This document shows, one piece after another, positions 26,669-56,845 of a stretch of DNA of 64,000 bases. The notes beneath the pieces were generated by a model that saw only the letters and a list, made by a program, of their open reading frames with translations, did not search any database and was not told the origin of the DNA. The stretch's first letter is position 1; each line of letters opens with the position of its first letter. The DNA comes from Escherichia phage SP22. The stretch lies in the sequence record LC519489.1; one strand, given 5' to 3'. Made by a program: the position numbers and the translations under genes.

Positions 26669-26815
26669 ATTATCTTTGTAGATAAGTTATTAAGCTTACC
26701 TGTGAGTATGCGACCACAAAGGGTGAAATGGTAAATTCTAGATTTAAACCCAACAATGCACATCGCTACAGACCTTAAGCAAGTCTGGGTAGCTTATCTA
26801 CAAAGATAATTTAAT

Positions 26816-26891
26816 GGAAGTGTAGCAGAATGGTGATGCGGCAGACTTTTAATCTGACAGGCGATGGGTTCGAATCCCTCCACTTCTACCA
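26816..26891 (+). tRNA. tRNA-Lys (anticodon TTT)
   Basis: acceptor ggaagtg/cacttct, anticodon loop cttttaa, T-loop ttcgaat, CCA. Confidence 0.65.
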
Positions 26892-26895
26892 ATAT

Positions 26896-26972
26896 GGTTC
26901 AGTCGCAGATAAGGTAATGCAGGGGTTTCATAAGCCCTATGAATGTGGGTTCGATTCCCATCTGAACCTCCA
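26896..26972 (+). tRNA. tRNA with anticodon CAT (elongator Met or Ile-lysidine type)
   Basis: acceptor ggttcag/ctgaacc, anticodon stem ggggt/gccct loop ttcataa, T-loop ttcgatt, CCA. Confidence 0.6.
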
Positions 26973-26973
26973 A

Positions 26974-27049
26974 GCTGGTATAGTTAAGAAGGTTATAACA
27001 CTCCCCTGATAAGGGAACATCGGTGGTTCGATTCCACCTACCAGTACCA
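26974..27049 (+). tRNA. tRNA-Ile (anticodon GAT)
   Basis: acceptor gctggta/taccagt, anticodon loop ctgataa, T-arm ggtgg-ttcgatt-ccacc, CCA. Confidence 0.65.
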
Positions 27050-27064
27050 ATTTCAATAAAGTTG

Positions 27065-27093
27065 TTGACATTGAGATGTGACTACTTTATAGT
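27065..27093 (+). promoter_or_regulatory. sigma70-like promoter (ttgaca 27065-27070, 17 bp, tatagt 27088-27093)
   Basis: consensus hexamers with 17-bp spacer. Confidence 0.55.
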
Positions 27094-27099
27094 AACTGA

Positions 27100-27387
27100 A
27101 AATGATTCAGCATATGTATAATTCAAACACCAATACATGAGCGTTAGACGTAACACAATGTGGGGAAATTTGTTGTACATATTCTGAATAGTTTTCGTTG
27201 CGTAGCGTCTATTTTGCAAATTTAAAATAAATGCAAACGACAATGTTTTTCTGGCAGTAGCTTGATAGGCTAAACACCAGTGAGGTCTTCCAATCCCTCA
27301 TCAAAGAATTTGGCGTACTCGCCCACGGTATGATTAATAAGGTGGGCATCTTTAAGGGCTTTCTAAGAGAGTCTTTAAAGATAATTA
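27100..27387 (+). ncRNA. candidate non-coding transcript downstream of the promoter and upstream of the atypical tRNA-like gene
   Basis: about 290 nt with no ORF of 60 aa or more in any frame, inside the tRNA cluster. Confidence 0.25.
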
Positions 27388-27469
27388 CGGGGCGTATCTC
27401 AGCGGTCTTCTAAACCGCCGTTAACCGAGTAAGTGGAGTATGCGGGTTCGAGTCCTGCCGCCTCGACCA
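27388..27469 (+). tRNA. atypical tRNA-like gene: canonical T-arm and acceptor with CCA, anticodon-like hairpin gcggt-cTTCTaa-accgc (TCT, Arg-type), no canonical D-arm, 23-nt extra region
   Basis: acceptor cggggcg/cgcctcg, T-arm gcggg-ttcgagt-cctgc; only 7 nt between acceptor and hairpin. Confidence 0.4.
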
Positions 27470-27483
27470 ATTTTGGAGAAATC

Positions 27484-27831
27484 ATGAAAACTTGTATTAG
27501 GTGCAAACTTAGCAAGGATGAAAATGATTTCTACATGAAAGATGGTAAGAGAACTCATTCATACTGTAAAAAGTGTGTTAATGAGCAAACCATAGAAAGA
27601 CAAAGAGCACTTAAACTTTCAGCTATTGAGTACAAAGGTGGGGTTTGTCATGATTGTGGTAAAAGGTATCATCCAGCAGTGTATGACTTCCATCATTTGA
27701 ATCCTTCAGAGAAAGATTTTAACATTGGTCATAGAAAAAGTCTGAAGTTCTCTCAAGAACTAAAAGATGAACTTGACAAATGTGTTTTGCTATGTTCAAA
27801 TTGCCATAGGGTAAGACATGCAAAGTATTAG
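27484..27831 (+). CDS. HNH homing endonuclease (paralog of 29214-29627)
   Basis: CxxC...CHDCG...HHLNP...CSNCHRVRH motifs; start set at ATG after SD ggag (track ORF 27433 overlaps the tRNA-like gene). Confidence 0.7.
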   Translation: MKTCIRCKLSKDENDFYMKDGKRTHSYCKKCVNEQTIERQRALKLSAIEYKGGVCHDCGKRYHPAVYDFHHLNPSEKDFNIGHRKSLKFSQELKDELDKCVLLCSNCHRVRHAKY

Positions 27832-27968
27832 TTAGCAGATTGCTTAGACGACCTTATCGGGTCTCCGTGTAAGGAGGTGGTCTGTATCTCATGTTTTCCA
27901 GAACATGTAAATAATCTGAGAAGGGGCTTTACAGTGTTGCGAAAATACGGTAAGCTTCGAATTACAAT

Positions 27969-28051
27969 ATGGGACGATGTTAAGACTCTAAGGCATGAGC
28001 AACGGCCTCCAAAACCGTTTCAAAGGGGTTCAACTCCTCCGTCCCATGCCA
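27969..28051 (+). tRNA. non-canonical tRNA-like element or pseudo-tRNA
   Basis: perfect acceptor atgggac/gtcccat-g-cca and T-loop ttcaact, but anticodon hairpin aacgg-cctccaaaa-ccgtt has a 9-nt loop and there is an about 8-nt insertion before the D-stem. Confidence 0.3.
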
Positions 28052-28064
28052 AAGTCTTATTAGG

Positions 28065-28154
28065 GGTAGGTAGCGGCTAATGGCAGCCAAACAGTCTTGA
28101 AAACTGTTGCCACTGTAGAGATACGGTGAGGGTTCGACTCCTTTACTTACCGCC
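28065..28154 (+). tRNA. tRNA-Ser (anticodon TGA), class II
   Basis: acceptor ggtaggt/acttacc, anticodon stem acagt/actgt loop cttgaaa, long variable arm, T-loop ttcgact. Confidence 0.65.
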
Positions 28155-28422
28155 TAATAAGATTTATACCGTCCATGCTTGCTCGCATTTTCGGTTTATC
28201 CTCGTGTATTGGTTGTACACACTGATAAAGCACCTAGTAGGTGTCACGGAGAAGAGATAATATCAAGCTCTCCAAAGGTTCTAGTCACCGGATTAAACAA
28301 GACTATGCAAAGACCAAATTAGGTCTTTTTAGAGGGCTTCTAAGGTTATTACAGCTTGTTGTGGAACCTTGTTGCTTAGGTTCTTAGAAGTTCTCTAAAA
28401 AGATTTAATGGGAGATTGACAC

Positions 28423-28875
28423 ATGGCACGTAGCAGTTTGACTAAAGATATTCTTGAACCTTTAGTAAAGGATTCAGTATCATTCAGAGAAGTACTTATT
28501 AAGCTTGGGAGAAAACCAGCAGGTGGTTCTCAGTCACATCTAAAGCGTGTTATAGAGAAGTTTGAAATAGACACTTCTCATTTCCTCGGACAAAAGGCTG
28601 GTAAGGTTAAAACTGTACCAAAAAGAAAGCCTGAAGAAATACTAATTCTGCGTGAATCTGGTGAAAGAGCTAGGTCTTCACAACTAAGAAGAGCTTTAAT
28701 AGCCTCTGGTGTCGAATACAAATGCTCTAAATGTGGTCAGTTACCGTATTGGTTGGGTAACCCTCTAACTCTTGATGTTGACCACATTAACGAGAACTGG
28801 TTAGATGATAGAAAAGAGAATCTTCGGTTCTTGTGTCCAAATTGCCACAGTCAATTCTCAAGACATTTGATTTAA
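28423..28875 (+). CDS. HNH homing endonuclease
   Basis: YKCSKCG...DHINENWLDDRKENLRFLCPNCH motif; SD gggag. Confidence 0.65.
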   Translation: MARSSLTKDILEPLVKDSVSFREVLIKLGRKPAGGSQSHLKRVIEKFEIDTSHFLGQKAGKVKTVPKRKPEEILILRESGERARSSQLRRALIASGVEYKCSKCGQLPYWLGNPLTLDVDHINENWLDDRKENLRFLCPNCHSQFSRHLI

Positions 28876-28876
28876 T

Positions 28877-28953
28877 GCACCTATAGCCCAACTGGTAGAG
28901 GCAGCAGACTTAGAATCTGCTCAGTGTGAGTTCGAATCTCTCTAGGTGTACCA
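28877..28953 (+). tRNA. tRNA with anticodon TAG (Leu-type anticodon) but short variable arm
   Basis: acceptor gcaccta/taggtgt-a-cca, anticodon stem gcaga/tctgc loop cttagaa, T-loop ttcgaat. Confidence 0.55.
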
Positions 28954-28960
28954 AATTAAT

Positions 28961-29036
28961 GCAGGTGTAGCAAAATGGTTATGCGGCTGACTCTTAATCA
29001 GTAAGACGATGGGTTCAATTCCCTCCACCTGTACCA
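28961..29036 (+). tRNA. tRNA-Lys (anticodon CTT), paralog of the TTT tRNA
   Basis: acceptor gcaggtg/cacctgt, anticodon loop ctcttaa, T-loop ttcaatt, CCA. Confidence 0.6.
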
Positions 29037-29042
29037 AACATT

Positions 29043-29118
29043 GGGGATGTAGTTTACATGGTTAAAACATAAGTTTTGCAAACTTAAGTACAGGGTTCAA
29101 TTCCCTGCTTCTCCACCA
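29043..29118 (+). tRNA. tRNA-Ala (anticodon TGC)
   Basis: anticodon stem taagt/actta loop tttgcaa, T-arm caggg-ttcaatt-ccctg, CCA. Confidence 0.6.
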
Positions 29119-29124
29119 ATTAGT

Positions 29125-29199
29125 GCATCCATAGTTTAAACGGGAAAATTACAGTCTTCCAAACTGAGGTTGAGGGTTCGATTCCCTCTGGATGCTCCA
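29125..29199 (+). tRNA. tRNA-Gly (anticodon TCC)
   Basis: acceptor gcatcca/tggatgc, anticodon loop cttccaa, T-arm gaggg-ttcgatt-ccctc, CCA. Confidence 0.65.
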
Positions 29200-29213
29200 A
29201 ATTAAGGTGTGAT

Positions 29214-29627
29214 ATGAAAATATGTAGTACTTGCAGAATACCAAAAGATGAAAGCTTATTCCATAAGAATAAGAACAAGAAAGATGGTCTTCAAAGTCAA
29301 TGCAAAGACTGTGCAAGACTTCGTGATGCAAAGAGTTATCAAGCAAATGATAAAAGGAAAGAGGCTATCAAAAGCACTCGTAACTTCAAGAGGGAGTATA
29401 ATAAAACTCTAGCTAGAAGGTACAAAGCTTTATGCAAATGTCATATATGTGGTGAGAAAGAACCAGCTGCACTGGATTTACACCATACAGACCCTTCCCA
29501 GAAAGATTTGAATCCTGCATCACTTTATTCATACTCCACAAAAAGATTAAAAGATGAAATCAGAAAGTGTATCGTCTTGTGTGCTAACTGTCACAGAAAA
29601 GTACACGCTGGTATCATACAAGTTTAA
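29214..29627 (+). CDS. HNH homing endonuclease (paralog of 27484-27831)
   Basis: CSTCR...CKDC...CHICG...HHTDPS...CANCHRKVH. Confidence 0.7.
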   Translation: MKICSTCRIPKDESLFHKNKNKKDGLQSQCKDCARLRDAKSYQANDKRKEAIKSTRNFKREYNKTLARRYKALCKCHICGEKEPAALDLHHTDPSQKDLNPASLYSYSTKRLKDEIRKCIVLCANCHRKVHAGIIQV

Positions 29628-29628
29628 T

Positions 29629-29705
29629 GCTGCTTTCGTATAATTGGCTATTACACATCCCTTGTAAGGATGGAAATGCAGGTTCGAGTCCTGTGAGCAG
29701 CACCA
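29629..29705 (+). tRNA. tRNA-Thr (anticodon TGT)
   Basis: acceptor gctgctt/gagcagc, anticodon stem catcc/ggatg loop cttgtaa, T-loop ttcgagt, CCA. Confidence 0.7.
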
Positions 29706-29801
29706 ATTTAGAGGTCAAGTGAAAGACCGCTTTGAGTCAACTGAAGACCGTAACAAATCCCACGGAGTTGAGTTAGCGGCACAACTTCAGACCTCTTTCA
29801 T
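29706..29801 (+). ncRNA. structured intergenic element with nested inverted repeats between tRNA-Thr and tRNA-Val
   Basis: gaggtc...gacctc, ctgaag...cttcag and ccgt...acgg inverted repeats; contains the gaagaccgt motif. Confidence 0.3.
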
Positions 29802-29876
29802 ACTCGCTTAGTTTATATGGTAAAACATCACCCTTACAAGATGAAGAAAAAGGTTCAAGTCCTTTAGTGAGTACCA
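29802..29876 (+). tRNA. tRNA-Val (anticodon TAC)
   Basis: acceptor actcgct/agtgagt, D-stem gttt/aaac, anticodon loop cttacaa, T-arm aaagg-ttcaagt-ccttt, CCA. Confidence 0.6.
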
Positions 29877-29877
29877 T

Positions 29878-29955
29878 GTTCCAGTATCCCAATTGGCAGA
29901 GGATGCAAGCTCAAACCTTGTACTAGTGACGGTTCGAATCCGTCTTGGAACACCA
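29878..29955 (+). tRNA. tRNA with anticodon CAA (Leu-type anticodon), short variable arm
   Basis: acceptor gttccag/ttggaac, anticodon stem gcaag/cttgt loop ctcaaac, T-arm gacgg-ttcgaat-ccgtc, CCA. Confidence 0.55.
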
Positions 29956-29960
29956 ATTTT

Positions 29961-30036
29961 GCAGGATTAGTTCAAATGGATAGAGCAACAGTCTACGAAG
30001 CTGTTAATAGGGGTTCGAATCCCTTATCCTGCGCCA
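29961..30036 (+). tRNA. tRNA-Arg (anticodon ACG)
   Basis: perfect acceptor gcaggat/atcctgc, D-stem gttc/gagc, anticodon stem acagt/gctgt loop ctacgaa, T-loop ttcgaat, CCA. Confidence 0.75.
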
Positions 30037-30055
30037 ATTTAAAGAGGCTATTTAG

Positions 30056-30613
30056 ATGAGATATTTGAAGTATGCTTCATGGATTTTCTTAGCTTTGTTA
30101 GAACCATTTGCAGCAATCTTAGCAGTTATCTTAGCACCTTTCGTAGTCCCATTCTACAGTGAGAAGAAAGGACACTTACCTTTCGGCTTCAGATGGATGG
30201 AGACATATGACAACCCAATTGATGGTGATAAAGGGCATGTCGAACGATGGGCTAAGATTAGAAAGATTGGCAAGCTTGGTGTCTATATGCAGAGAGTCGG
30301 TTGGCTCTGGAGAAACAAAGCTTATAACTTCTCTTACCATGTGTTAGGAAGAGATGTAAAAGATGTTACTAAGTGGAAAGGCAATATCAACGTAAGTTCT
30401 AACCCTGAAGATAATCAGACAGGTTATCTCCTAATGTGGAACAGCAATGCTTGGGGATTATTCGCTTTTATCCCATCAATTAAAGTCTTTGGTAAACAAT
30501 TTTACTGGAGAATTTATATTGGGTGGAAGCTAAAAAGTGTTGTCCCAGAAGAAAGAGCATTCTCAAGGGAAAGAGTTATGTTGGCATTCTTTATTCATCC
30601 ACTAAGAAAGTAA
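30056..30613 (+). CDS. hypothetical Trp-rich membrane protein encoded inside the tRNA cluster
   Basis: N-terminal hydrophobic segment WIFLALLEPFAAILAVILAPFVVPF. Confidence 0.45.
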   Translation: MRYLKYASWIFLALLEPFAAILAVILAPFVVPFYSEKKGHLPFGFRWMETYDNPIDGDKGHVERWAKIRKIGKLGVYMQRVGWLWRNKAYNFSYHVLGRDVKDVTKWKGNINVSSNPEDNQTGYLLMWNSNAWGLFAFIPSIKVFGKQFYWRIYIGWKLKSVVPEERAFSRERVMLAFFIHPLRK

Positions 30614-30621
30614 AGATTTAA

Positions 30622-30697
30622 AGGGGATTAGTTTACAAGGTTAAAACCTCGGTCTTTGAAATCGAAGAAGTTGGTTCAATTCCAACATCCCCCGCCA
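30622..30697 (+). tRNA. tRNA-Gln (anticodon TTG)
   Basis: anticodon stem tcggt/atcga loop ctttgaa, D-stem gttt/aaac, T-arm gttgg-ttcaatt-ccaac, CCA; A1:C72 unpaired. Confidence 0.6.
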
Positions 30698-30699
30698 AT

Positions 30700-30778
30700 G
30701 CTCCATTACTCCAATTGGCAGAGAGGCCAGACTTAAAATCTGTGTTATGTATCGGTTCGAATCCGATATGGAGTACCA
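30700..30778 (+). tRNA. tRNA with anticodon TAA (Leu-type anticodon), short variable arm
   Basis: acceptor gctccat/atggagt, anticodon loop cttaaaa, T-arm atcgg-ttcgaat-ccgat, CCA. Confidence 0.55.
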
Positions 30779-30783
30779 AATTT

Positions 30784-30859
30784 AGCGGTATAGCATAACT
30801 GGCAATGCAGCAGTCTCTGAAGCTGTCTTATTAAGGTTCAAATCCTTATGCCGCTGCCA
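30784..30859 (+). tRNA. tRNA with anticodon CTG (Gln-type)
   Basis: acceptor agcggta/tgccgct, D-stem gcat/atgc, anticodon loop ctctgaa, T-arm taagg-ttcaaat-cctta, CCA. Confidence 0.55.
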
Positions 30860-30890
30860 CTTCTAAGGGTTCTTACGAGAGTCCTTAAAT

Positions 30891-30966
30891 GTGGCCTTAT
30901 CATAAATGGTAATGACCCATGCTGTGAACATGGTCTATACGGGTTCAAATCCCGTAGGTCACCCCA
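30891..30966 (+). tRNA. tRNA-His (anticodon GTG)
   Basis: acceptor gtggcct/aggtcac, anticodon stem ccatg/catgg loop ctgtgaa, T-loop ttcaaat, CCA. Confidence 0.7.
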
Positions 30967-30971
30967 ATTTA

Positions 30972-31046
30972 TAGTCCAAGTAGCTTATATGGTTAAAGCG
31001 CGTGTCTGAAAAACATGAGAAGAGGGTTCAAATCCCACTGGACTAC
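30972..31046 (+). tRNA. tRNA-Phe (anticodon GAA); 3' CCA not fully encoded
   Basis: acceptor tagtcca/tggacta, anticodon stem cgtgt/acatg loop ctgaaaa, T-loop ttcaaat. Confidence 0.55.
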
Positions 31047-31064
31047 CAATTTCAAAGGTGCTTA

Positions 31065-31799
31065 ATGAAAGAGATGACAGAACAAGGTAAGGAGATTTTT
31101 AATCTCTTAAAAACCGGTAAAGGGTTTTCTAATCCCCTTATTACTGGTGCAGCAGTTCTCGGTGGAACCGTAGCTGCCTCTACATCACTTGTAAGCTCTA
31201 TTAGCTCTGTAACAGACCCTACAATAAAAGATAAGCTTGTTGCTGCTGGACTTACAACAGTCCTGCTTAACAGCTTTACAACGAGTCTGACAAGCACTAC
31301 ATCAACTACCAAAACACTGACAGATTACGGTCAAAAATCTATTGATGAGTTTTCATCACGTATGCAGGTAGCAAAAGGCTATTCTAATGTTATGGGTGCA
31401 GCAGGAGAGCAGGTTGGTTGTACACCATTTAGTGGTATTATGGGTGTTGCTACAGAGTATGGTCAAAAAGCTATTGACACGATTAACAGTGCACTAGATG
31501 GTGTTAATGATGTATTAAGTGACTTACAAGATGCTATTGACAAAGGTCTTGATACTATTTCTGATTTAGCTAACCAAGCTGTTAGTAAGATTAATGAAGG
31601 TATTTCGAAGATTACAGCTTATGCAGATGAAGTTGTGCAGATGATTGAAGAAGAAGCTGCTCTTATTGCAGAGTACCTTAAAACGAATATCAATGGGTTC
31701 TTAGCAGGTATCTTACCAGACTGGTTTGATGATGCTTGTAAAACTGGTGTAATTGATACTATTGCAACACCAGAAATGAAGAACGCATTACAGAAATAA
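31065..31799 (+). CDS. hypothetical Ser/Thr/Ala-rich protein (start set at internal ATG after the tRNA; track ORF 31002 overlaps tRNA-Phe)
   Basis: ORF track with start adjusted. Confidence 0.45.
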   Translation: MKEMTEQGKEIFNLLKTGKGFSNPLITGAAVLGGTVAASTSLVSSISSVTDPTIKDKLVAAGLTTVLLNSFTTSLTSTTSTTKTLTDYGQKSIDEFSSRMQVAKGYSNVMGAAGEQVGCTPFSGIMGVATEYGQKAIDTINSALDGVNDVLSDLQDAIDKGLDTISDLANQAVSKINEGISKITAYADEVVQMIEEEAALIAEYLKTNINGFLAGILPDWFDDACKTGVIDTIATPEMKNALQK

Positions 31800-31800
31800 T

Positions 31801-31893
31801 GGAAGATTAACCCTAAAAGGTAAGGGAGCAGTTTGCTAAACTGCCAGTAGCTGAGAAATCGGTGTACCAGTTCAAGTCTGGTATCTTCCTCCA
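31801..31893 (+). tRNA. tRNA-Ser (anticodon GCT), class II
   Basis: perfect acceptor ggaagat/atcttcc, anticodon stem gcagt/actgc loop ttgctaa, long variable arm, T-arm accag-ttcaagt-ctggt, CCA. Confidence 0.75.
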
Positions 31894-31897
31894 ATTT

Positions 31898-31973
31898 GAA
31901 TCCGTGACAGAAATGGTTATGTGCCTGTCTGCAAAACAGGTTTATAAGGGTTCGAGTCCCTTCGGATTCTCCA
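31898..31973 (+). tRNA. tRNA-Cys (anticodon GCA)
   Basis: perfect acceptor gaatccg/cggattc, anticodon stem cctgt/acagg loop ctgcaaa, T-arm aaggg-ttcgagt-ccctt, CCA. Confidence 0.75.
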
Positions 31974-49040: not shown

Positions 49041-49041
<1 letters not shown>

Positions 49042-50510
49042 TGGCAGGATTAACTACAACAGGATTACAAACTCTAAGATATCAGGAAATTTTTGATAAT
49101 ATCAAATCAAGACTTCTTAGAGATATTTCACCCAACCTTGACGTTTCTGAAGATAGTCAATTAGGACTCTTCCTAGCTTCAATTGCAAGGTCTTTAGCTG
49201 ATACTCATGAGATTCTATCAGAAATCTACGATGGAGGTACAATTGATAAGGCTGAAGGGTTTAACCTTGATGATATTACAGCTTTAAATGCGGTATACAG
49301 ATATGTTGCTCAGGCAACAAGAGGTCAAGTTGAGTTTACTGGAACGACTGGTGCTACCATTCCTTCAACAACAAGGTTAAGAAGTACTGCCGGAAACATC
49401 TTTTATCCAGTTAATAATATTACCCTTACTCCATCATATTGTGTTGAAGCTATCCTTGAAGTTAACTCTTTACGAACTGATGCAGATTATGTTATTATTA
49501 TTGATAACGTCATTTTCTCATATAAACCAACCTCATCAGACACAATCACCACGCTTCTAACAAAATTAGCAGAAGCTATTAATGGTGGTATTGTAGCAAA
49601 AGCAGAAGTCATTAATGATGGAGCCGCACTAAGAGTCTATAAAGACGAGGGTGATATCATTGCAAGAACAAATCCTATGGTTGTCACTGCAACAACGTTT
49701 CTGACCTTTACAAAAATTACAACTATTTCAGATGTAGTAGCTGAAGAGGTTGGTGCTACCCCTGCTTTGGCTGGTACGCTTATTGAGATTGAGACAACTG
49801 TTGATGGTCTTGACAGTATTTATAACAGGTATGACTTAACAACTGGTAGAAACGAAGAAACTGACACAGAACTTAGACAGAGATATTTAGAATCTTTAGC
49901 AGTTACTGGTGTAGGGACTTTGGATGCAATTGTAGCTGCTGTTAAAAGAGTTCAAGGTGTCTCAGATGCTTCAGGTGTTGAGAATGATACTGAAGAGACA
50001 AGCTCAGAAGGTCTTCCACCAAAATCTTTTAAGATTGTTGTAGTTGGTGGTCAAAATGATAATGTTGCTCAAGCAATCTGGGATACAAAACCTGCTGGTA
50101 TTAGAGCTTATGGCTCAATTTTTGGTACAGCCCATGATTTAGGTGGATTGGCACATAATATTTATTTTAGCAGACCAACACCAAAATACGCATTTGTTAA
50201 AGTCTCTTACTCTTTATATGATGAAGAAAGCTTGACAATCCCTGAAGAGGATATCAGAGACAGCATTGTACAAGGTATTAATGCTTATGGGAGAACTCTT
50301 AAGGTTGGTAATGATGTTATCCCTAACAGAATCTATGGATATATCTATGACGTAATTAAAGGTATTGAGATTAATGAGGTTAAAGTAGCCTTATCAAACA
50401 GCCAATCAGTCCCACCTAGTGACGGGCAGTATACTACAGCAAGAATTACTGTTGACGGTGACCAATATACTGTTTGGGAAAGCAGCCAGTATACCATCAC
50501 TAAGGAGTAA
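49041..50510 (+). CDS. putative baseplate wedge protein (J/gp6-like)
   Basis: position and size. Confidence 0.35.
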
Positions 50511-50512
50511 TA

Positions 50513-51367
50513 ATGTTTGAAAAGATTGATAGTGTTTATTACAAAACACTTGATGAAAGGACTGTAACACAGTTTAAAGATAAATTTATCTATACAAGTA
50601 TCTTGAAAGCAATCACTGATGAATTACAAACTCTAGAGGATGTTTGCTGGCAGATGCACACAGAGAGAAATATCAGGACGTCAGTAGGCCAACAGCTTGA
50701 TAACATTGGCTCACTGATTAAAGTTCCTAGACCTTTAGGTGCAGATGATGAAACATATAGGGCTATGCTTTATATTCAAATCTTCCTAAGACGCTCTGAC
50801 ACCACCCCAACATTCTTGCAAAAAGCAATTATGACGCTATACGGTGCAACTTTCTCTCAGATTTTTGAGCATATTACTCCTAAGACTGGTGGTATCGTTA
50901 TCCGTATCAACACTAGAAAAAGCGTTCTAGATGCTGCATATACACTGTCAAAGATTTCTGCAACAACTACTGGCTCCGCTGTTATCTTAAGAGATGTTAC
51001 TTTAAATGGGACTGCTTGGACACCTGTAGAGGTTGCTGATTCATCACTTGCTATTGTTGATGATAAAGAGAACTGGTTTGTAACTGATGCTAACAGAGGT
51101 CTTGTCACAAATAACACTGGTGGCTCTCTGGAGTCCAACTTAGTAGGTAGTCTTGCAGATGCTGGTGTTATTGATGGTTACTTTAGGGTTGACAGAACAG
51201 CAAACTCACAGAGTGATGATTATATGACTGTAGATAGGTCCAATAATAGTGGTTATTTCATCGTTGGTAAAGAAGCTATTGCAGGTGGTGCATATGGAAT
51301 CATGGCTGAGGTTGCACAAATTGTCAAAGGCAGAAAAGATAAATCACAACAAGAAGGAAATTCTTAA
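50513..51367 (+). CDS. putative baseplate/tail-fibre-associated protein
   Basis: position. Confidence 0.3.
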
Positions 51368-51669
51368 TGGCAGTTTTAAATTGGTCTACAAATGAAGTAG
51401 ATACTGATGGTAACCAGTTAAAAGTTTTACCACCACCGGAAGTTCAAGAGACAGGTCTTTTAAAGGGTGAACCTATGGGTAGACAGTGGTTCAACTATAT
51501 TATCAACTACCTGCTTAATAAAGTAAACGGCACTGTTGGTGAAGTTCGCTCATATGCAACTGAGCAACCAGATTTAGTGGCTAATGGATGGAATCTGATT
51601 AAATCTGAGACAGGGACTGCATCAACAAGTACAGGAAACCTTTACACATATGAATATGTAGGAGCTTAA
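51367..51669 (+). CDS. hypothetical tail-module protein
   Basis: ORF track. Confidence 0.3.
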
Positions 51670-51671
51670 TA

Positions 51672-52847
51672 ATGGCAGTAGGTGAAATTCAAATTAGTGC
51701 CTTGCCACAAGCGGCCTTACCAGTTGATTTAAGTGATATCTTCCATCTTAAGCAAGGTGTTGAGGATAAAAGATGTACGCTTGAACAGTTGTTAGCACCT
51801 CACGCATCTTTGAGGAATAATCCTCATGGTGTAACCAAATCGCAAGTGGGTCTTGATAATGTTATTAACTCTCTCCAATTAGTTGCAGCTAATAACTTGT
51901 CAGACATTGTGAATGTTGCTGAGGCAAGAGCAAATCTACAAATTATGTCGTCAGAGGAAGTGAATAACTTAATTCAGCAACATATTGACGACAAAAGTAA
52001 CCCACACAATACAACGAAAGCGCAGGTCGGTTTAAGTAATGTTCAGAACTGGACAACATCTAATCTGTACAATGAAGATGCTGATAAGTACGCTACCGCG
52101 AGAGCAGTGAATAATTTATACAAAGCTATTCAAGCATCATATCCAGTAGGGACTATTCATCTATCTGTTAACTCTGCTAACCCATCAACTTACTTGCTTT
52201 GTGGAGGTACTTGGGAGTTAGTTTCTAAAGGTAGAGCACTAGTTGGTTATGATACAGATTCTAGACCTGTTGGTTCAATGTTTGGTTCTCAGACTGTAGC
52301 ATTAACGAATAATAATTTACCAGCACACACACACTCTATCTATCTAACAGGTGGTGGTCATACACACTCTGCAAGTGTATCTATCTCTAGTTTTGATTAT
52401 GGTTCAAAGAGTACATCAACTTTTGACTACGGTACAAAAACGACTAATAGTACTGGTGCTCATACTCACACGTTTAGTGGTACAACAAGTAATGCTGGTA
52501 ACCACAACCATAGAGTACCTATGAGGGGTAATGATAGGGGCGGTACAAATGCTATTACTGCATCTGCTGATGCTGGTGTTGGTAATGCTATGTATACTGA
52601 TTTAGCTGGTGCTCACACCCATAGCTTCTCAGGCACAACTGCATCATCTGGTGCTCATAGCCATACTGTTGCAATTGGTGCTCACAGCCACACTGTTAAT
52701 ATTGGTTCACACAGTCATACTGGCACTGTTACTGTTTCTAGCTCTGAGCATACACACTCAGGGACATCTGGTTCTGTTGGTGGTGGTCAAGCTTTCAGTG
52801 TTGAGCAACCATCTTTTGTAGTATATGTGTGGCAGAGAACAGCTTAA
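51672..52847 (+). CDS. tail fibre protein with His-x-His repeat tip domain
   Basis: C-terminal repeats GAHTHSFSGTT, GAHSHTV, GSHSHTG; shared C-terminal ending W(Q/V)RTA with the next gene. Confidence 0.5.
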   Translation: MAVGEIQISALPQAALPVDLSDIFHLKQGVEDKRCTLEQLLAPHASLRNNPHGVTKSQVGLDNVINSLQLVAANNLSDIVNVAEARANLQIMSSEEVNNLIQQHIDDKSNPHNTTKAQVGLSNVQNWTTSNLYNEDADKYATARAVNNLYKAIQASYPVGTIHLSVNSANPSTYLLCGGTWELVSKGRALVGYDTDSRPVGSMFGSQTVALTNNNLPAHTHSIYLTGGGHTHSASVSISSFDYGSKSTSTFDYGTKTTNSTGAHTHTFSGTTSNAGNHNHRVPMRGNDRGGTNAITASADAGVGNAMYTDLAGAHTHSFSGTTASSGAHSHTVAIGAHSHTVNIGSHSHTGTVTVSSSEHTHSGTSGSVGGGQAFSVEQPSFVVYVWQRTA

Positions 52848-52866
52848 TTTCTTTACAGGGGTTTTG

Positions 52867-52886
52867 TAGCCCCTTTTAAGAGGAAA
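52867..52886 (+). terminator. rho-independent terminator
   Basis: ggggttttgtagcccc + tttt. Confidence 0.6.
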
Positions 52887-52893
52887 ATTTATA

Positions 52894-55263
52894 ATGGCAG
52901 ATTACAAATTGAGTCAATTAAACTCAATCGACACAATTCGTTCAGAAGACCTATTGCACATCAGAGTTAAGAAAAGACCTGAAATGTTGGGTGACGAAGA
53001 CCGTAGAATGACCTATCAAGACTTCTTAGCTTCCTTCAAACTAGAAAGGTTTGTTCAGATTGCTGGGAGTACTATGACGGGAGACTTAGGTATTGTCAAG
53101 TTACTTTACGGTGGTAAGGCAGTATTTGACCCAACAGGCTCTTCTGAGATTACTATTGGGGATATTTTAAAGACTTTTAAAATTAACTCAAATGGGCTTA
53201 AACTCACTATTGCAGATGCCACAAGGTCGGCAACTGTTTATCATACTTTGAATAAACCAAGCCCTAATGAACTTGGTATGAGAACTAATGAAGAGAATGA
53301 TGCAAGATATGCAAGGCTTGCTGTTACAAACACATTCTCTGGAACTCAGAACATTCAAGGTGATGCTAACTTACTTCGTCTTAGAAACCAGAATGCAAAT
53401 AATGCGCAATATATTGAGGGTGTGAACTTAGATGGTTCAGCTAGATGGTGGGTTGGTATTGGTAGTAATGGCTCTGATGAAGTAAAACTGTACAATAACA
53501 AATACAACTCAGCTTTGACTATTGCAAGCAATATCTCTGTTAATAAGTCTTTAGCAATCACTGGTCAAGTTCAACCTTCAGACTTCTCTAACTTAGATGC
53601 TAGATACTTCACTCAGACAGTTGCTAATCAGAGATTTGCACAGTTAGCTGGTAATAACACTTTTACAGGTGCTAACACATTTAGGACTATGAGTGTTATT
53701 TCAAATGCTGCTGCTATCACACTGCAATGTGCATCAGCAAACGAATCCCTGTATCTACTTGCAAAAGATTATGAAGGTGGAAACTTATGGTATCTTGGTA
53801 AAGGTAGTTCAGGTGCTGGTGTAACTATCTACAACTATACCACTAACACCTCTTTGGTCTTAGATGCTGCTGGGGTATCAGCAAATAAAAATGTCAGAAT
53901 CACTGGTCAAGTTCAACCTTCAGATTGGGCTAACATTGACTCTAGATATATTCCGGCAGCAACATTAAGCACGATTGCAAGAACTAATGCACAAAATACT
54001 TTTAATGGTGTACAGAAAGTTGTTACGGATGATGAAGCCCTAATTGTGAAAAACTCTACTCAGAACAGACCATTGTATATCCGTGGTGTGGACACTGCTA
54101 ATGTTTCAAGATGGTGGGTAGGTGTTGGTGGGGCAGATACTAATGACGTGACACTAAATAACAGTTTTTCTGGAACTCAGTTAGTTTTAGGTAACTCATC
54201 TGCAAGTATCAACAAAACACTAACTCTAACTGGACAGATTCAACCTTCAGATTTCTCTAACTTAGATGCTAGATACTACGTTAAATCTGCAACAGATGCA
54301 AAGTACTTATGGTCATCAGCCAGAGCTTTGGTGGAGGAGTCTGATGGTGGTGTGGCTTGGAACCAACCTTCAGGAATTTATGCAGAGACTATCAATGGTG
54401 GTGGTTCAAGCCGTTTAGTCTTACACCTATTCGCTAATATGTTAGCATCAACACCAACTGCACAATTAAGATTTGATTACAGGAATAGTGGTTTATGGTA
54501 TAGAACAGCCAGAGATAGGTATGGTTTTGAGGCTGAATGGTCTAAGGTTTACACTGAAGCTCAGAAACCAACACCTTCAGAAATTGGTGCATACACTAAA
54601 GCAGAGACTGACCAGAAGATTGCAGAGGCGATTAGTGACTCTACAGACCTGAATAAAATCTATCCAGTAGGTATTGTAACGTGGTTTAACAGTAATGTTA
54701 ACCCTAATACAGCACTTCCTGGATTAACTTGGACGTACCTGAACAATGGTGTTGGTAGAACTATTAGAATTGCAGCAGCAAATGGTTCAGATGTTGCTAC
54801 AACTGGTGGTTCAGACTCTGTAACGTTGTCTGTCGGTAACTTACCTTCACATACACATAGCTTCTCTGCTACCACTTCATCATTTGATTATGGTACTAAG
54901 ACAACAAATACGACTGGCAACCATGCTCATGATAGAGGTAACATGGAAATCTCTGGTGTGTTTGGTTGGTTCAGAAGTGACAATGGTGCATTTTACACTG
55001 CGAGTGGTGCGTTTGTGATGGGTAGTAGTCAGGCTTCACATGGCTTCACAGGCTCTAACTTCACTTACGGTGCTCCTGTTGATTTCCACGCGTCAAGAAC
55101 TTGGACAGGTGTAACTAATACAACCGGTAACCACGCTCACAGCGTCGGTATTGGTGCTCACAACCACACAGTTAGCGGTAACACTGGTGGTACAGGTTCT
55201 GGTTCAGCATTTAGTGTTACTAACCAGTTCTACAAGTTAATGGCTTGGGTGAGAACTGCTTAA
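52894..55263 (+). CDS. long tail fibre protein with three internal repeats and HxH-repeat C-terminal tip
   Basis: internal repeats containing ITGQVQPSDFSNLDARY (x3); C-terminal GNHAHSVGIGAHNHTVSGNT and ...MAWVRTA. Confidence 0.55.
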   Translation: MADYKLSQLNSIDTIRSEDLLHIRVKKRPEMLGDEDRRMTYQDFLASFKLERFVQIAGSTMTGDLGIVKLLYGGKAVFDPTGSSEITIGDILKTFKINSNGLKLTIADATRSATVYHTLNKPSPNELGMRTNEENDARYARLAVTNTFSGTQNIQGDANLLRLRNQNANNAQYIEGVNLDGSARWWVGIGSNGSDEVKLYNNKYNSALTIASNISVNKSLAITGQVQPSDFSNLDARYFTQTVANQRFAQLAGNNTFTGANTFRTMSVISNAAAITLQCASANESLYLLAKDYEGGNLWYLGKGSSGAGVTIYNYTTNTSLVLDAAGVSANKNVRITGQVQPSDWANIDSRYIPAATLSTIARTNAQNTFNGVQKVVTDDEALIVKNSTQNRPLYIRGVDTANVSRWWVGVGGADTNDVTLNNSFSGTQLVLGNSSASINKTLTLTGQIQPSDFSNLDARYYVKSATDAKYLWSSARALVEESDGGVAWNQPSGIYAETINGGGSSRLVLHLFANMLASTPTAQLRFDYRNSGLWYRTARDRYGFEAEWSKVYTEAQKPTPSEIGAYTKAETDQKIAEAISDSTDLNKIYPVGIVTWFNSNVNPNTALPGLTWTYLNNGVGRTIRIAAANGSDVATTGGSDSVTLSVGNLPSHTHSFSATTSSFDYGTKTTNTTGNHAHDRGNMEISGVFGWFRSDNGAFYTASGAFVMGSSQASHGFTGSNFTYGAPVDFHASRTWTGVTNTTGNHAHSVGIGAHNHTVSGNTGGTGSGSAFSVTNQFYKLMAWVRTA

Positions 55264-55342
55264 TCACTTGTTGACTGATTGTTAAGATGGTGTTAATATT
55301 CTTTATAGGTATTCTCACCATCTTGGCTGATGAGGTGATTAA

Positions 55343-55540
55343 ATGCCTACAATCCTAGCAATTCTTCTAAAAAATCTAGGTAGCTTCTTCTGGAAACTCG
55401 TTTTATCCCTTCTAAGTGAATACATGATTGAGAAAGTGTTCTTCAGACTTGCAAGATATCTTGCGAGTAAAACAGATACACCTATTGATGATGAGTTCGT
55501 AGATAACTTAGAAAAAGCTTTTAAGGGGGAGAATAAATGA
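55343..55540 (+). CDS. small membrane-associated protein
   Basis: hydrophobic N-terminus; ORF track. Confidence 0.3.
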   Translation: MPTILAILLKNLGSFFWKLVLSLLSEYMIEKVFFRLARYLASKTDTPIDDEFVDNLEKAFKGENK

Positions 55541-55908
55541 AGTGGCTAGAGGAAGCTTTTAAAAATAATATTGGTGCAATTGTAGTTGGTATTTTTAGTG
55601 TTATTGGGATGTATACCACCATGCAAGTTTCGGATGGTAAGCAAGAAGTGTCTGTCACAACAAAGTTACAACAGCTAGATAATTATTCCAAAAGTAACTA
55701 TTCAGCTATTCGTGATTTACAGTCTGACATGAGACTGATTCAGCTAGGGATGGAGAACCAGAAAGTTCAGTTAGAGAATGTTAAGGGTGAGAATGCAAAA
55801 CTTACCAAAACTCTTGATAAATTCTCTGACAGTGTGAACAATCTGGCTCAATCAGTATCAGCCTTGCAAGCTATTACTGAAAAGAACACAAAGAATACTG
55901 AAAAATAA
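55537..55908 (+). CDS. membrane-anchored coiled-coil protein (N-terminal TM helix)
   Basis: IGAIVVGIFSVIGMY hydrophobic segment then heptad-like Q/L/N-rich sequence. Confidence 0.35.
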   Translation: MKWLEEAFKNNIGAIVVGIFSVIGMYTTMQVSDGKQEVSVTTKLQQLDNYSKSNYSAIRDLQSDMRLIQLGMENQKVQLENVKGENAKLTKTLDKFSDSVNNLAQSVSALQAITEKNTKNTEK

Positions 55909-55916
55909 AATTTTAA

Positions 55917-55944
55917 GGCTCCCGTAAAAAGGAGCCTTTTTTGT
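55917..55944. terminator. bidirectional terminator between convergent structural and replication blocks
   Basis: aggctcc-cgtaaaaa-ggagcct hairpin flanked by A-run and T-run. Confidence 0.65.
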
Positions 55945-55945
55945 T

Positions 55946-56845
55946 TTATTTACCTACTGATAAAGGTGCTTCAATTTTTCCTGCATGTTGGTAATTATTA
56001 ATACCACCGATAAAATCACTTGCAGTGAGATGTTTTAAGTCACTTAAAGTGTTAAGTGGGATACCAATCTCAAAAGTTGGTGCATGGAACTCTTCATTGT
56101 TCATCAGTTCATAAACCTGTTTCATATGGTTCTGATAAATCTGAGTATCTCCAAAGACTCCTATCAAGTACCGTGGAGTGTATCCAGTCATCTTACAAAG
56201 AACTTCCAGAATAAAGCCGTAAGATGCAATGTTAAATGGAAGTCCTAAAAAGGTGTCTACAGAACGCTGATACCATTGCAAATCTACTTCACCTTCATTA
56301 GTAATGTAAATCTGAAACAGAACATGACAAGGTGCTAAAGCCATTGAGTTTGCTGCGATATCTGCTGCATTCCAAGCATTAACAAGCATGTATCTGTCTG
56401 TGATATCACCCTTCATCTTCGTTACTAAGGTCTCTAGCTGGTCTACAACACAACCGTTATGACCTTCAAAGTTTCTCCACTGAACTCCATAGATTCTCCC
56501 ACCTGCATCCTCTAACCAATCTTGTTCAGAAGAATAATTAGAGCTTAACCAACGTTTAAAATCATCTGACCAGATAGTCCAGCGTTCTCCGTCATTTTCA
56601 TCCCAAGTACGGTAACGAAGTTCACCCAGCTTATTCTCACCATTCAGGAACCATAAAGCCTCCCCAATAACTTGCCGTGTAAACACCTGTTTAGATGTTA
56701 AGAGCGGGAAACCAGTCCTCATATCAAAACGAAACTGAGGTGGAGCAAAAGCAGAGATAACATCTCCAGTTCGTGTAGTACGCAGTTCACCAACGGATAA
56801 AACATGGTTCAGGATATTTTTGTAACTTGTATCTGCTTGTGACAT
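55946..56845 (-). CDS. thyA: thymidylate synthase
   Basis: active-site region MALAPCHVLFQIY and other ThyA-conserved blocks; 299 aa; apparently uninterrupted. Confidence 0.85.
   Translation of the reverse strand: MSQADTSYKNILNHVLSVGELRTTRTGDVISAFAPPQFRFDMRTGFPLLTSKQVFTRQVIGEALWFLNGENKLGELRYRTWDENDGERWTIWSDDFKRWLSSNYSSEQDWLEDAGGRIYGVQWRNFEGHNGCVVDQLETLVTKMKGDITDRYMLVNAWNAADIAANSMALAPCHVLFQIYITNEGEVDLQWYQRSVDTFLGLPFNIASYGFILEVLCKMTGYTPRYLIGVFGDTQIYQNHMKQVYELMNNEEFHAPTFEIGIPLNTLSDLKHLTASDFIGGINNYQHAGKIEAPLSVGK

Follow-up and report, generated by a model that had tools for sequence, protein, structure and literature searches.

Paired short and long tail fibre genes of Escherichia phage SP22 with predicted T4 gp37-type tips

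Two tail fibre genes that stand side by side in Escherichia phage SP22 (sequence record LC519489.1) are analysed here against the phages in which comparable fibre pairs have been described. The window, that is, the whole stretch of DNA that was analysed, is 64,000 nucleotides long. Open reading frame 1 (ORF1) occupies nt 51672–52847 and encodes 391 residues, and ORF2 occupies nt 52894–55263 and encodes 789 residues. Both are on the plus strand, as are all the fibre features located below, and both lie exactly where an initial annotation of the window had placed two tail fibre genes. A fibre pair of the same genus was resolved by cryo-electron microscopy in Escherichia phage JohannRWettstein (Bas63; Sci Adv 2025, PDB 9NDY), with the short fibre gp26 of 430 angstrom and the long fibre gp27 of 630 angstrom (PMC12609058). 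Both fibres have a gp37-like collar, needle and head, the needle being a homotrimeric beta-barrel of six strands, and the long fibre has in addition five beta-helix domains (PMC12609058). The authors likened this rod to T4 gp34 and described tips and rod domains as strongly variable across the genus (PMC12609058).

Shigella phage Sf14 belongs to the same subfamily (Ounavirinae). A 2025 study described two sets of fibres on it, folded upwards against the sheath, which 'may bind different receptors', and mass spectrometry identified the two proteins (PMC11821841). They are named 'long tail fiber' (gp52) and 'longer tail fiber' (gp53). In Salmonella phage Felix O1, Whichard et al. (2010) reported similarity to the C-terminus of gp37 and noted nucleotide repeats common to gp76 and gp77 (PMC3185647). 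The Felix O1 virion proteome contained gp77, whereas gp76, at 9% coverage, was excluded from the list of positively identified proteins (PMC3185647).

The tip of phage T4 gp37 is the structural reference for these fibres (Islam et al. 2019). Residues 811–881 and 1010–1026 form the collar D10, residues 882–1009 form a needle inserted into the collar, and residues 932–959 within the needle are the tip that contacts the receptor (PMC6957217). In the crystal structure (PDB 2XGF) the needle is six-stranded, and HxH motifs of the three chains hold iron ions along it. Seven iron atoms are coordinated, and alanine substitution of the iron-binding His929/His931 results in no plaques (PMC6957217). Gp37 also needs gp38 and gp57A (PMC6957217).

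The SP22 genes are identified by sequence as the two tail fibre genes of a Felixounavirus (Felix O1-like coliphage). The region of about 5 kb is about 94% identical in nucleotides to Felixounavirus phages that infect E. coli O157 (KEP3, wV8 and O157 typing phages). To Felix O1 the identity is about 80% over the fibre genes and 93% downstream. At the protein level, ORF1 shares 98–99% identity with the corresponding wV8, KEP3 and Pr103Blw proteins and 77% with Felix O1 gp76. For ORF2 the identity is 100% with the entry 'putative tail fiber [Escherichia phage SP22]' and 75–85% with the fibres of Felix O1, wV8, KEP3 and Pr103Blw, the 75% referring to Felix O1 gp77. Both ORFs are orthologous to Felixounavirus fibres over their full length. 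ORF1 is the orthologue of Felix O1 gp76, and ORF2 that of gp77; by synteny they correspond to Bas63 gp26 and gp27, and to Sf14 gp52 and gp53, respectively. The C-terminal ends, VWQRTA for ORF1 and AWVRTA for ORF2, are the same as in Felix O1. ORF1 matches the tail fibre family phrog_2097 (E 5e-139) and Pfam Gp10_C (66.6 bits), and ORF2 matches phrog_4277 (E 0) and the Pfam families gp37_trimer (three times), gp37_C and Gp10_C. It is highly probable that the region encodes the short fibre (ORF1) and the long fibre (ORF2) of a Felixounavirus virion, both with tips of the T4 gp37 type.

The tips are marked by H-x-H (HxH) motifs. ORF1 contains nine (aa 219, 230, 264, 278, 315, 329, 338, 347 and 360) and ORF2 contains four (aa 653, 677, 747 and 756). 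When each protein was shuffled 5000 times, the number averaged 1.4 for ORF1, with a maximum of 6, and 0.2 for ORF2, with a maximum of 3. The clusters that the initial annotation saw at the ends of both fibres are thus far above the chance level, and the shuffles, together with the conservation described below, rule out chance or low complexity as their origin. The peptides on which it drew are found at aa 313 (GAHTHSFSG) and at aa 327 and 336 (GAHSHTV) of ORF1, and at aa 745 of ORF2 (GNHAHSVGIGAHNHTV). The common terminus W(Q/V)RTA is, as it proposed, formed by the last five residues of each protein, WQRTA in ORF1 and WVRTA in ORF2. The numbers of HxH motifs in the short and the long fibre, 9 and 4, differ from the 9 and 6 of Felix O1 and from the 7 and 6 (including HHxH) given in the published description of the Bas63 fibres. 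The HHxH form is specific to Bas63; none was present in any retrieved homologue of more than 700 residues.

Both C-terminal regions are homologous to the T4 gp37 tip (PDB 2XGF). ORF1 aa 145–362 matches it with E 1.8e-27, and the match takes in the collar, FDYGTK and the two strands rich in histidine. ORF2 aa 647–768 matches with E 4.2e-5 as a single sequence and with E 1.9e-15 as a profile of 109 tip sequences. The two SP22 tips also match each other (BLASTP E 2e-10), and hhalign aligns the profiles of their families with 99.9% probability and E 6.5e-37; the 195 aligned columns start at the YPVG motif of the collar and extend to the C-terminal residue. Judged by these alignments, they are true paralogues. 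In a three-way alignment with T4 gp37 795–1026, the HxH motifs fall in register with T4 positions 883, 915, 929, 966, 980, 989 and 998. ORF1 retains all seven and has an additional motif on each of the two strands, outgoing and returning; ORF2 retains four of the seven and is without equivalents of 929, 966 and 998. The W(Q/V)RTA terminus aligns opposite ...NYIVRLA of T4. In both tips a collar of the gp10/gp11/gp12 type is closed by the C-terminal strand. Like gp37, the SP22 tips would combine a collar, an out-and-back HxH needle, a small head and a C-terminus back at the collar, and they have FDYGTK and the GxHxH spacing in common with it.

The initial annotation had staked its proposal on the conservation of the motifs and on a shared fold, and the histidines are kept in orthologues and in distant homologues alike. 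In ORF1 each HxH histidine is retained in 51 to 76 of 77 homologues, down to 35% identity. The eight histidines of ORF2 are invariant in 85/85 orthologues and in 109/109 tip homologues, including prophage fibres of 42–50% identity, and the four motifs are present in 36/36 orthologues of a longer, 848-residue class. The ending AWVRTA is found in 120/120 ORF2 orthologues, and a W-x-R-(T/V)-(A/S) ending in nearly all of the 77 ORF1 homologues.

The homology with 2XGF thus supports the suggestion of a metal-coordinating receptor-binding tip in two paralogous fibres, in which metal binding would follow from the T4 precedent. The arrangement within the tip appears to differ from the one first suggested. 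Because of the domain layout of T4 gp37 and the alignment with it, the HxH motifs would be rivets of the needle shaft and not the surface that contacts the receptor, and the C-terminus would be a strand that closes the collar and not the distal end, as it also returns to the collar in T4 (PMC6957217). The receptor-contacting head is probably the variable, HxH-free stretch between the two strands, aa 282–312 in ORF1 and aa 681–744 in ORF2.

Several observations weigh against this assignment or set the SP22 tips apart from T4 gp37. The Gp10_C match of ORF2 scores 25.9 bits, below the gathering threshold of 27 bits. Because three of the seven T4 HxH motifs are missing, the distal needle of ORF2 may be built differently, and its head of about 64 residues compares with a tip subdomain of 28 residues in T4. 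AlphaFold2 (AF2) monomer models of the two proteins, each predicted to be an obligate intertwined trimer, have a mean predicted local distance difference test (pLDDT) score of 66 and 73; Foldseek with these monomer models gave no significant match and did not retrieve 2XGF, and at the level of the fold the models support the collar only. T4 carries its tip on a long fibre of four proteins, whereas the SP22 tips are on short fibres of one protein each. No homologue of gp38, which T4 gp37 needs, was found in the 64-kb window (tblastn noise only, E > 8). Finally, the Sf14 study placed the gp37/C24-like domain of its shorter fibre in the middle of that fibre and likened both fibres to those of phage Mu (PMC11821841), which conflicts with the Bas63 description.

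ORF1 carries in its predicted shaft the motif NPHxxTKxQVGLxNVxN twice, 60 residues apart (regular expression search; nt 51819–51869 and 51999–52049, aa 50–66 and 110–126). Motifs resembling it account for PHROG matches to many unrelated tail fibre families. The N-terminal part of the collar follows at nt 52131–52325 (aa 154–218). The ascending needle strand (nt 52326–52514) bears the first four HxH motifs, aligned with T4 H883, H915 and H929 plus one extra, and a duplication of FDYG(S/T)K. The head (nt 52515–52607) is aligned with the T4 tip subdomain 932–959 and is hypervariable, with 30% identity to Felix O1 against 85–100% in the rest of the protein; its AF2 pLDDT is below 50. The descending strand (nt 52608–52757) bears the other five HxH motifs, aligned with T4 H966, H980, H989 and H998 plus one extra. 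The collar-closing strand ...AFSVEQPSFVVYVWQRTA (nt 52758–52847, including the stop codon) is aligned with ...NIAFNYIVRLA of T4 gp37. A 70-residue ORF in another frame within ORF1 (nt 52609–52821), rich in Leu, His and Val, results from the repetition of GGT-GCT-CAC-NNN-CAC codons (His/Thr/Ser) and was rejected as a gene.

ORF2 consists of an N-terminus, a rod and the tip. Residues 1–139 (nt 52894–53310) comprise the putative baseplate-binding N-terminus and the first rod domain, with the linker KPSPNELG...DARY at the end; column identity per 20-residue block is 92–99% among 84 orthologues. This linker is common to domain 5 (BLASTP E 2e-4). Three homologous rod units follow at aa 140–238, 239–352 and 353–461 (nt 53311–54276), each made of a variable, beta-rich domain and the linker (I/L)TGQ(V/I)QPSD(F/W)(S/A)N(L/I)D(A/S)RY. 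The units are 99, 114 and 109 residues long and 32–45% identical in pairs (BLASTP E 2e-19 to 6e-30), and Pfam gp37_trimer (PF20744) covers three stretches with E 8.7e-79. The three linkers are marked in the DNA by a 49-nt repeat family (D3) at nt 53560, 53902 and 54229. Conservation is 58–75% in the domain cores and 95–97% in the linkers. The triplication named in the initial annotation is therefore present, but the peptide given as its hallmark, ITGQVQPSDFSNLDARY, occurs only once in the exact form (aa 222), and the other two units have variants of it at aa 336 and 445.

The fifth rod domain (aa 462–576, nt 54277–54621) matches Pfam gp37_C (PF12604, E 5.3e-16) and the phage Mu fibre protein S (PDB 8JU3, E 2.3e-23). 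The two domains that flank the triplication (aa ~55–121 and 462–557) show no detectable kinship to the three units, and share the linker type KP(S/T)P(N/S)E(L/I)G. The conservation profile thus shows five variable blocks, and the rod consists of five domains between conserved linkers, the same count as in the Bas63 long fibre. The gp34 structures gave no significant sequence match to ORF2. ORF2 also matched the T7 gp17 tip, but at E 0.009 too weakly for interpretation.

In the tip of ORF2, the N-terminal part of the collar (aa 587–652, nt 54652–54849) is 99–100% conserved among the orthologues. The ascending needle (nt 54850–54933) and the descending needle (nt 55126–55173) bear two HxH motifs each. 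The head between them (nt 54934–55125), about 64 residues free of HxH, is unrelated to the ORF1 head. It shows 67–73% column identity against 99–100% in its flanks and only 10–25% identity to Felix O1, and its AF2 pLDDT is 43–54. The C-terminal collar-closing segment ...AFSVTNQFYKLMAWVRTA (nt 55174–55263, including the stop codon) is 99–100% conserved and aligned with the T4 C-terminus.

The long fibre is mosaic across the genus. In the class of 789 residues (84 orthologues), the N-terminus (aa 1–140), the linkers, the collar (aa 581–660) and the C-terminus (aa 761–789) are 92–100% conserved, whereas rod domains 2–5 and the head (aa 681–740) fall to 52–79%. The 848-residue class, which comprises wV8, KEP3 and the O157 typing phages and makes up about 30% of the retrieved orthologues, has domain 5 replaced by an unrelated domain about 60 residues longer. 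It keeps the collar, needle and C-terminus, and its head is moderately diverged (65% identity per 20-residue block). Rod domain 3 is common to SP22 and KEP3, and is not found in wV8 or Pr103Blw; domain 5 of KEP3 differs from that of SP22. Such variation is the ordinary modular evolution of phage fibres, and it agrees with the variable tips and rod domains 2–5 that the Bas63 study describes across the genus.

The two heads of SP22 are of 31 residues (ORF1) and 64 residues (ORF2), and no alignment can be made between them. A head at least 90% identical to that of ORF1 occurs in 30 records of phages, most of which were isolated with E. coli O157:H7 as host, whereas only 9 records have the ORF2 type at the same threshold. 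In Shigella phages, the long-fibre head region of Sf14 is 82% identical to ORF2 aa 660–760, and Sf13, which is close to Sf14, has an ORF1-type head of only about 59% identity. The pairing in Felix O1 is of another kind. Its genes for gp76 and gp77 have a 270-nt tract in common (L001 7418–7687 and 9877–10146), 81% identical, with exact repeats of 51, 32 and 32 nt at a constant offset. The tract covers the distal needle and the head, and because of it the two Felix O1 fibres have a nearly identical distal needle and head. From the pattern of identity, the paralogues seem to have undergone gene conversion in a single lineage. Since the heads of SP22 are unrelated in length and sequence, it is plausible that its two fibres recognise different structures; in Felix O1 both fibres may recognise one and the same structure. 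The receptors themselves, and the order in which the two fibres bind, we infer rather than observe. Felixounaviruses have generally been reported to depend on the lipopolysaccharide (LPS) core only (PMC8594841, PMC11821841).

These data bear on several other explanations. One is that ORF1 is a wedge or pin protein of the baseplate, of the T4 gp10 type, which only anchors other fibres. The Gp10_C match points that way, but alignments with gp10 are limited to the collar (ORF1 aa 140–240, gp10 residues ~439–529 of 602), no other gp10 domain was matched in Pfam, and the full-length architecture of gp10 is thus lacking. The 2XGF match is far stronger and runs on through both HxH strands, beyond the gp10 alignments; the PHROG families of ORF1 are those of tail fibres, and its Bas63 orthologue was seen as a 430-angstrom fibre (PMC12609058). 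We consider a gp10-type role very unlikely. Still less credible, to the point of being nearly excluded, is a switch in which one tip is used at a time through inversion, a diversity-generating retroelement or alternative expression. The paralogous tips do lie in tandem with a weak hairpin between the genes, and the initial annotation had raised host-range switching beside dual-receptor recognition. However, the fibre genes are on the same strand and each has its own start codon, and single virions of Bas63 and of Sf14 were seen to carry the two sets together (PMC12609058, PMC11821841). By tblastn no further tip cassette was found in the 64-kb window, nor were there inverted repeats of at least 16 nt in the 45–60 kb interval. 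A programmed tropism switch, by an invertible segment of the Mu/P1 type or a diversity-generating retroelement, is rejected because neither cassette nor inverted repeat was found within these limits. Of the two consequences drawn from the paralogy, recognition of two receptors thus remains plausible and switching is unsupported.

Two further explanations accept the tips as homologous and differ on what they are for. The fibres may be redundant, with the same receptor, so that the duplication gives avidity and not a broader specificity. The nearly identical heads of Felix O1 and the reported dependence on the LPS core (PMC8594841, PMC11821841) are in its favour, but the heads of SP22 are unrelated and the distributions of the two head types among phage records differ; we regard redundancy as rather unlikely for SP22. 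The idea of recombination at His boxes comes from the adhesin genes of T-even phages. The HxH-coding repeats of SP22 could similarly matter mainly as DNA, as 'His-box' homologies for recombination of tips between paralogues or phages, with metal binding secondary. Conserved segments do bound the variable modules, and in Felix O1 the common tract gives both fibres the same head (PMC3185647). Yet the longest identical stretch common to the ORF1 and ORF2 genes is 13 nt and the HxH repeat family is 62–79% identical, which is too little for efficient homologous exchange. In addition, the histidines are conserved in homologues of 35–45% identity despite their diverged DNA; because they persist where the DNA has diverged, selection appears to act at the level of the protein. 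A mainly DNA-level role is thus unlikely, although the two roles are not mutually exclusive.

On the favoured interpretation, that of two fibres with gp37-type tips, each protein would most likely form a homotrimer whose N-terminus docks on the baseplate, and the C-terminal ~210–250 residues would fold as the T4 gp37 receptor-binding tip. The chain would pass from a gp10/gp11/gp12-type collar out along the needle to the small distal head, and back to the collar, ending in the W(Q/V)RTA strand. At each HxH level, three chains would give six imidazoles round the three-fold axis, that is, one octahedral metal site, which in T4 is occupied by iron. There may be up to nine such sites in ORF1, the seven of T4 and one extra per strand, and four in ORF2. 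The metal sites would be structural, riveting the needle, and host contact would be made by the heads free of HxH. The long fibre would add a rod of five linker-separated domains, three of them the recognisable triplication. The two sets of fibres probably recognise different surface structures, and what is known of relatives suggests the LPS outer core. Changes of host range would come from the exchange of modules among phages, namely of the head and of rod domains 3 and 5.

The rod may have a part in recognition as well. The exchange of domains 3 and 5 is not tied to that of the head, and on this basis the long fibre could be a multi-site adhesin, in which these domains serve as lateral receptor-binding sites and, with occasional gene conversion of heads, constitute a combinatorial system of host range. 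This is a tentative proposal, and we think it rather unlikely. It was reported that variants of a Salmonella Felixounavirus enriched upon host exposure lie at long-fibre residues 497 and 534 (PMC6669636); provided that the numbering is the same, these may lie within domain 5. A role of the rod domains in host recognition is one of three possibilities listed by the Bas63 authors (PMC12609058), so the proposal goes only slightly further than what has been published.

The tip module of ORF2 is also found outside the genus. Prophage fibres of Erwinia, Photorhabdus, Providencia, Xenorhabdus and Mixta, and the lambda side tail fibre (orf-314/stf), have the ORF2-type collar and HxH needle at 42–50% identity, with the eight histidines invariant. 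They differ from ORF2 in having other N-terminal shafts (Phage_fiber and Phage_fiber_2 repeats) and other heads, and many have three descending HxH motifs instead of two. The collar with the four-HxH needle also occurs, in the same range of identity, in prophage fibres of Arsenophonus and Serratia. The name 'phage baseplate protein', which NCBI often gives to such prophage fibres, is probably a misnomer derived from the name of Pfam Gp10_C.

The set of two fibres, the gp37-like HxH needles and the repeated rod domains are already known from Bas63 (2025), Sf14 (2025) and Felix O1 (2010), and what SP22 adds is limited to the numbers of HxH motifs and the pairing of heads. The genus is a common one among coliphages and these fibre genes are well annotated; the finding is real but ordinary. 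It does offer a guide to engineering the host range of Felix O1-like phages, which are used in diagnostics and biocontrol of Salmonella and E. coli O157. In such engineering the conserved collar, the HxH rungs and the C-terminal strand should be retained, and the natural units to swap would be the heads (ORF1 aa 282–312, ORF2 aa 681–744) and rod domains 3 and 5.

The gene order around the fibres is that of Felix O1 and wV8: wedge, platform, ORF1, ORF2, two small membrane-protein genes and a convergent thymidylate synthase gene. The order of wedge, platform, short fibre and long fibre is shared with Bas63. A baseplate J-like wedge gene lies at nt 49041–50510 and a second wedge protein gene at nt 50513–51367. 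The gene at nt 51367–51669 (plus strand; phrog_4141) encodes a protein of 100 residues, all of which (100/100) match the Bas63 'LTF platform protein (gp025)' (PDB 9NDY chain S) with E 4.2e-58. It would anchor the long fibre to the wedge of the baseplate.

Downstream of ORF2 are a 65-residue gene (nt 55343–55540, phrog_402) and a 123-residue gene (nt 55537–55908, phrog_4038). Both families are of unknown function and both products have a hydrophobic N-terminal part, followed in the larger one by a long tail resembling a coiled coil. The larger is named 'putative holin' in one relative. The place after the long fibre, where T4 has gp38, is thus taken by two small membrane-type genes and holds no fibre chaperone gene.

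The spacer of 46 nt between the fibre genes (nt 52848–52893, plus strand) contains a 7-bp GC-rich hairpin followed by UUUU. Its minimum free energy is −14.1 kcal/mol (z −1.8, not significant), and it was not called by the consensus scan; the wV8 annotation has a rho-independent terminator in the same spacer. The hairpin is possibly a weak terminator or attenuator that might reduce read-through into the long-fibre gene. The scan of nt 51300–56000 for promoter and terminator consensus sequences was at background level except for a bidirectional terminator 3′ of the late operon. This terminator-like hairpin, AAGGCTCC...GGAGCCTT, has T-runs on both strands and is situated at nt 55915–55938, between the end of the late operon and the convergent thymidylate synthase gene. 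A search of the literature found no mention of phage SP22. Felix O1 is reported to have 22 tRNA genes; in SP22, 25 tRNA genes are clustered at nt 25634–31973 on the plus strand, including tRNA-His (GTG) at nt 30891–30966.

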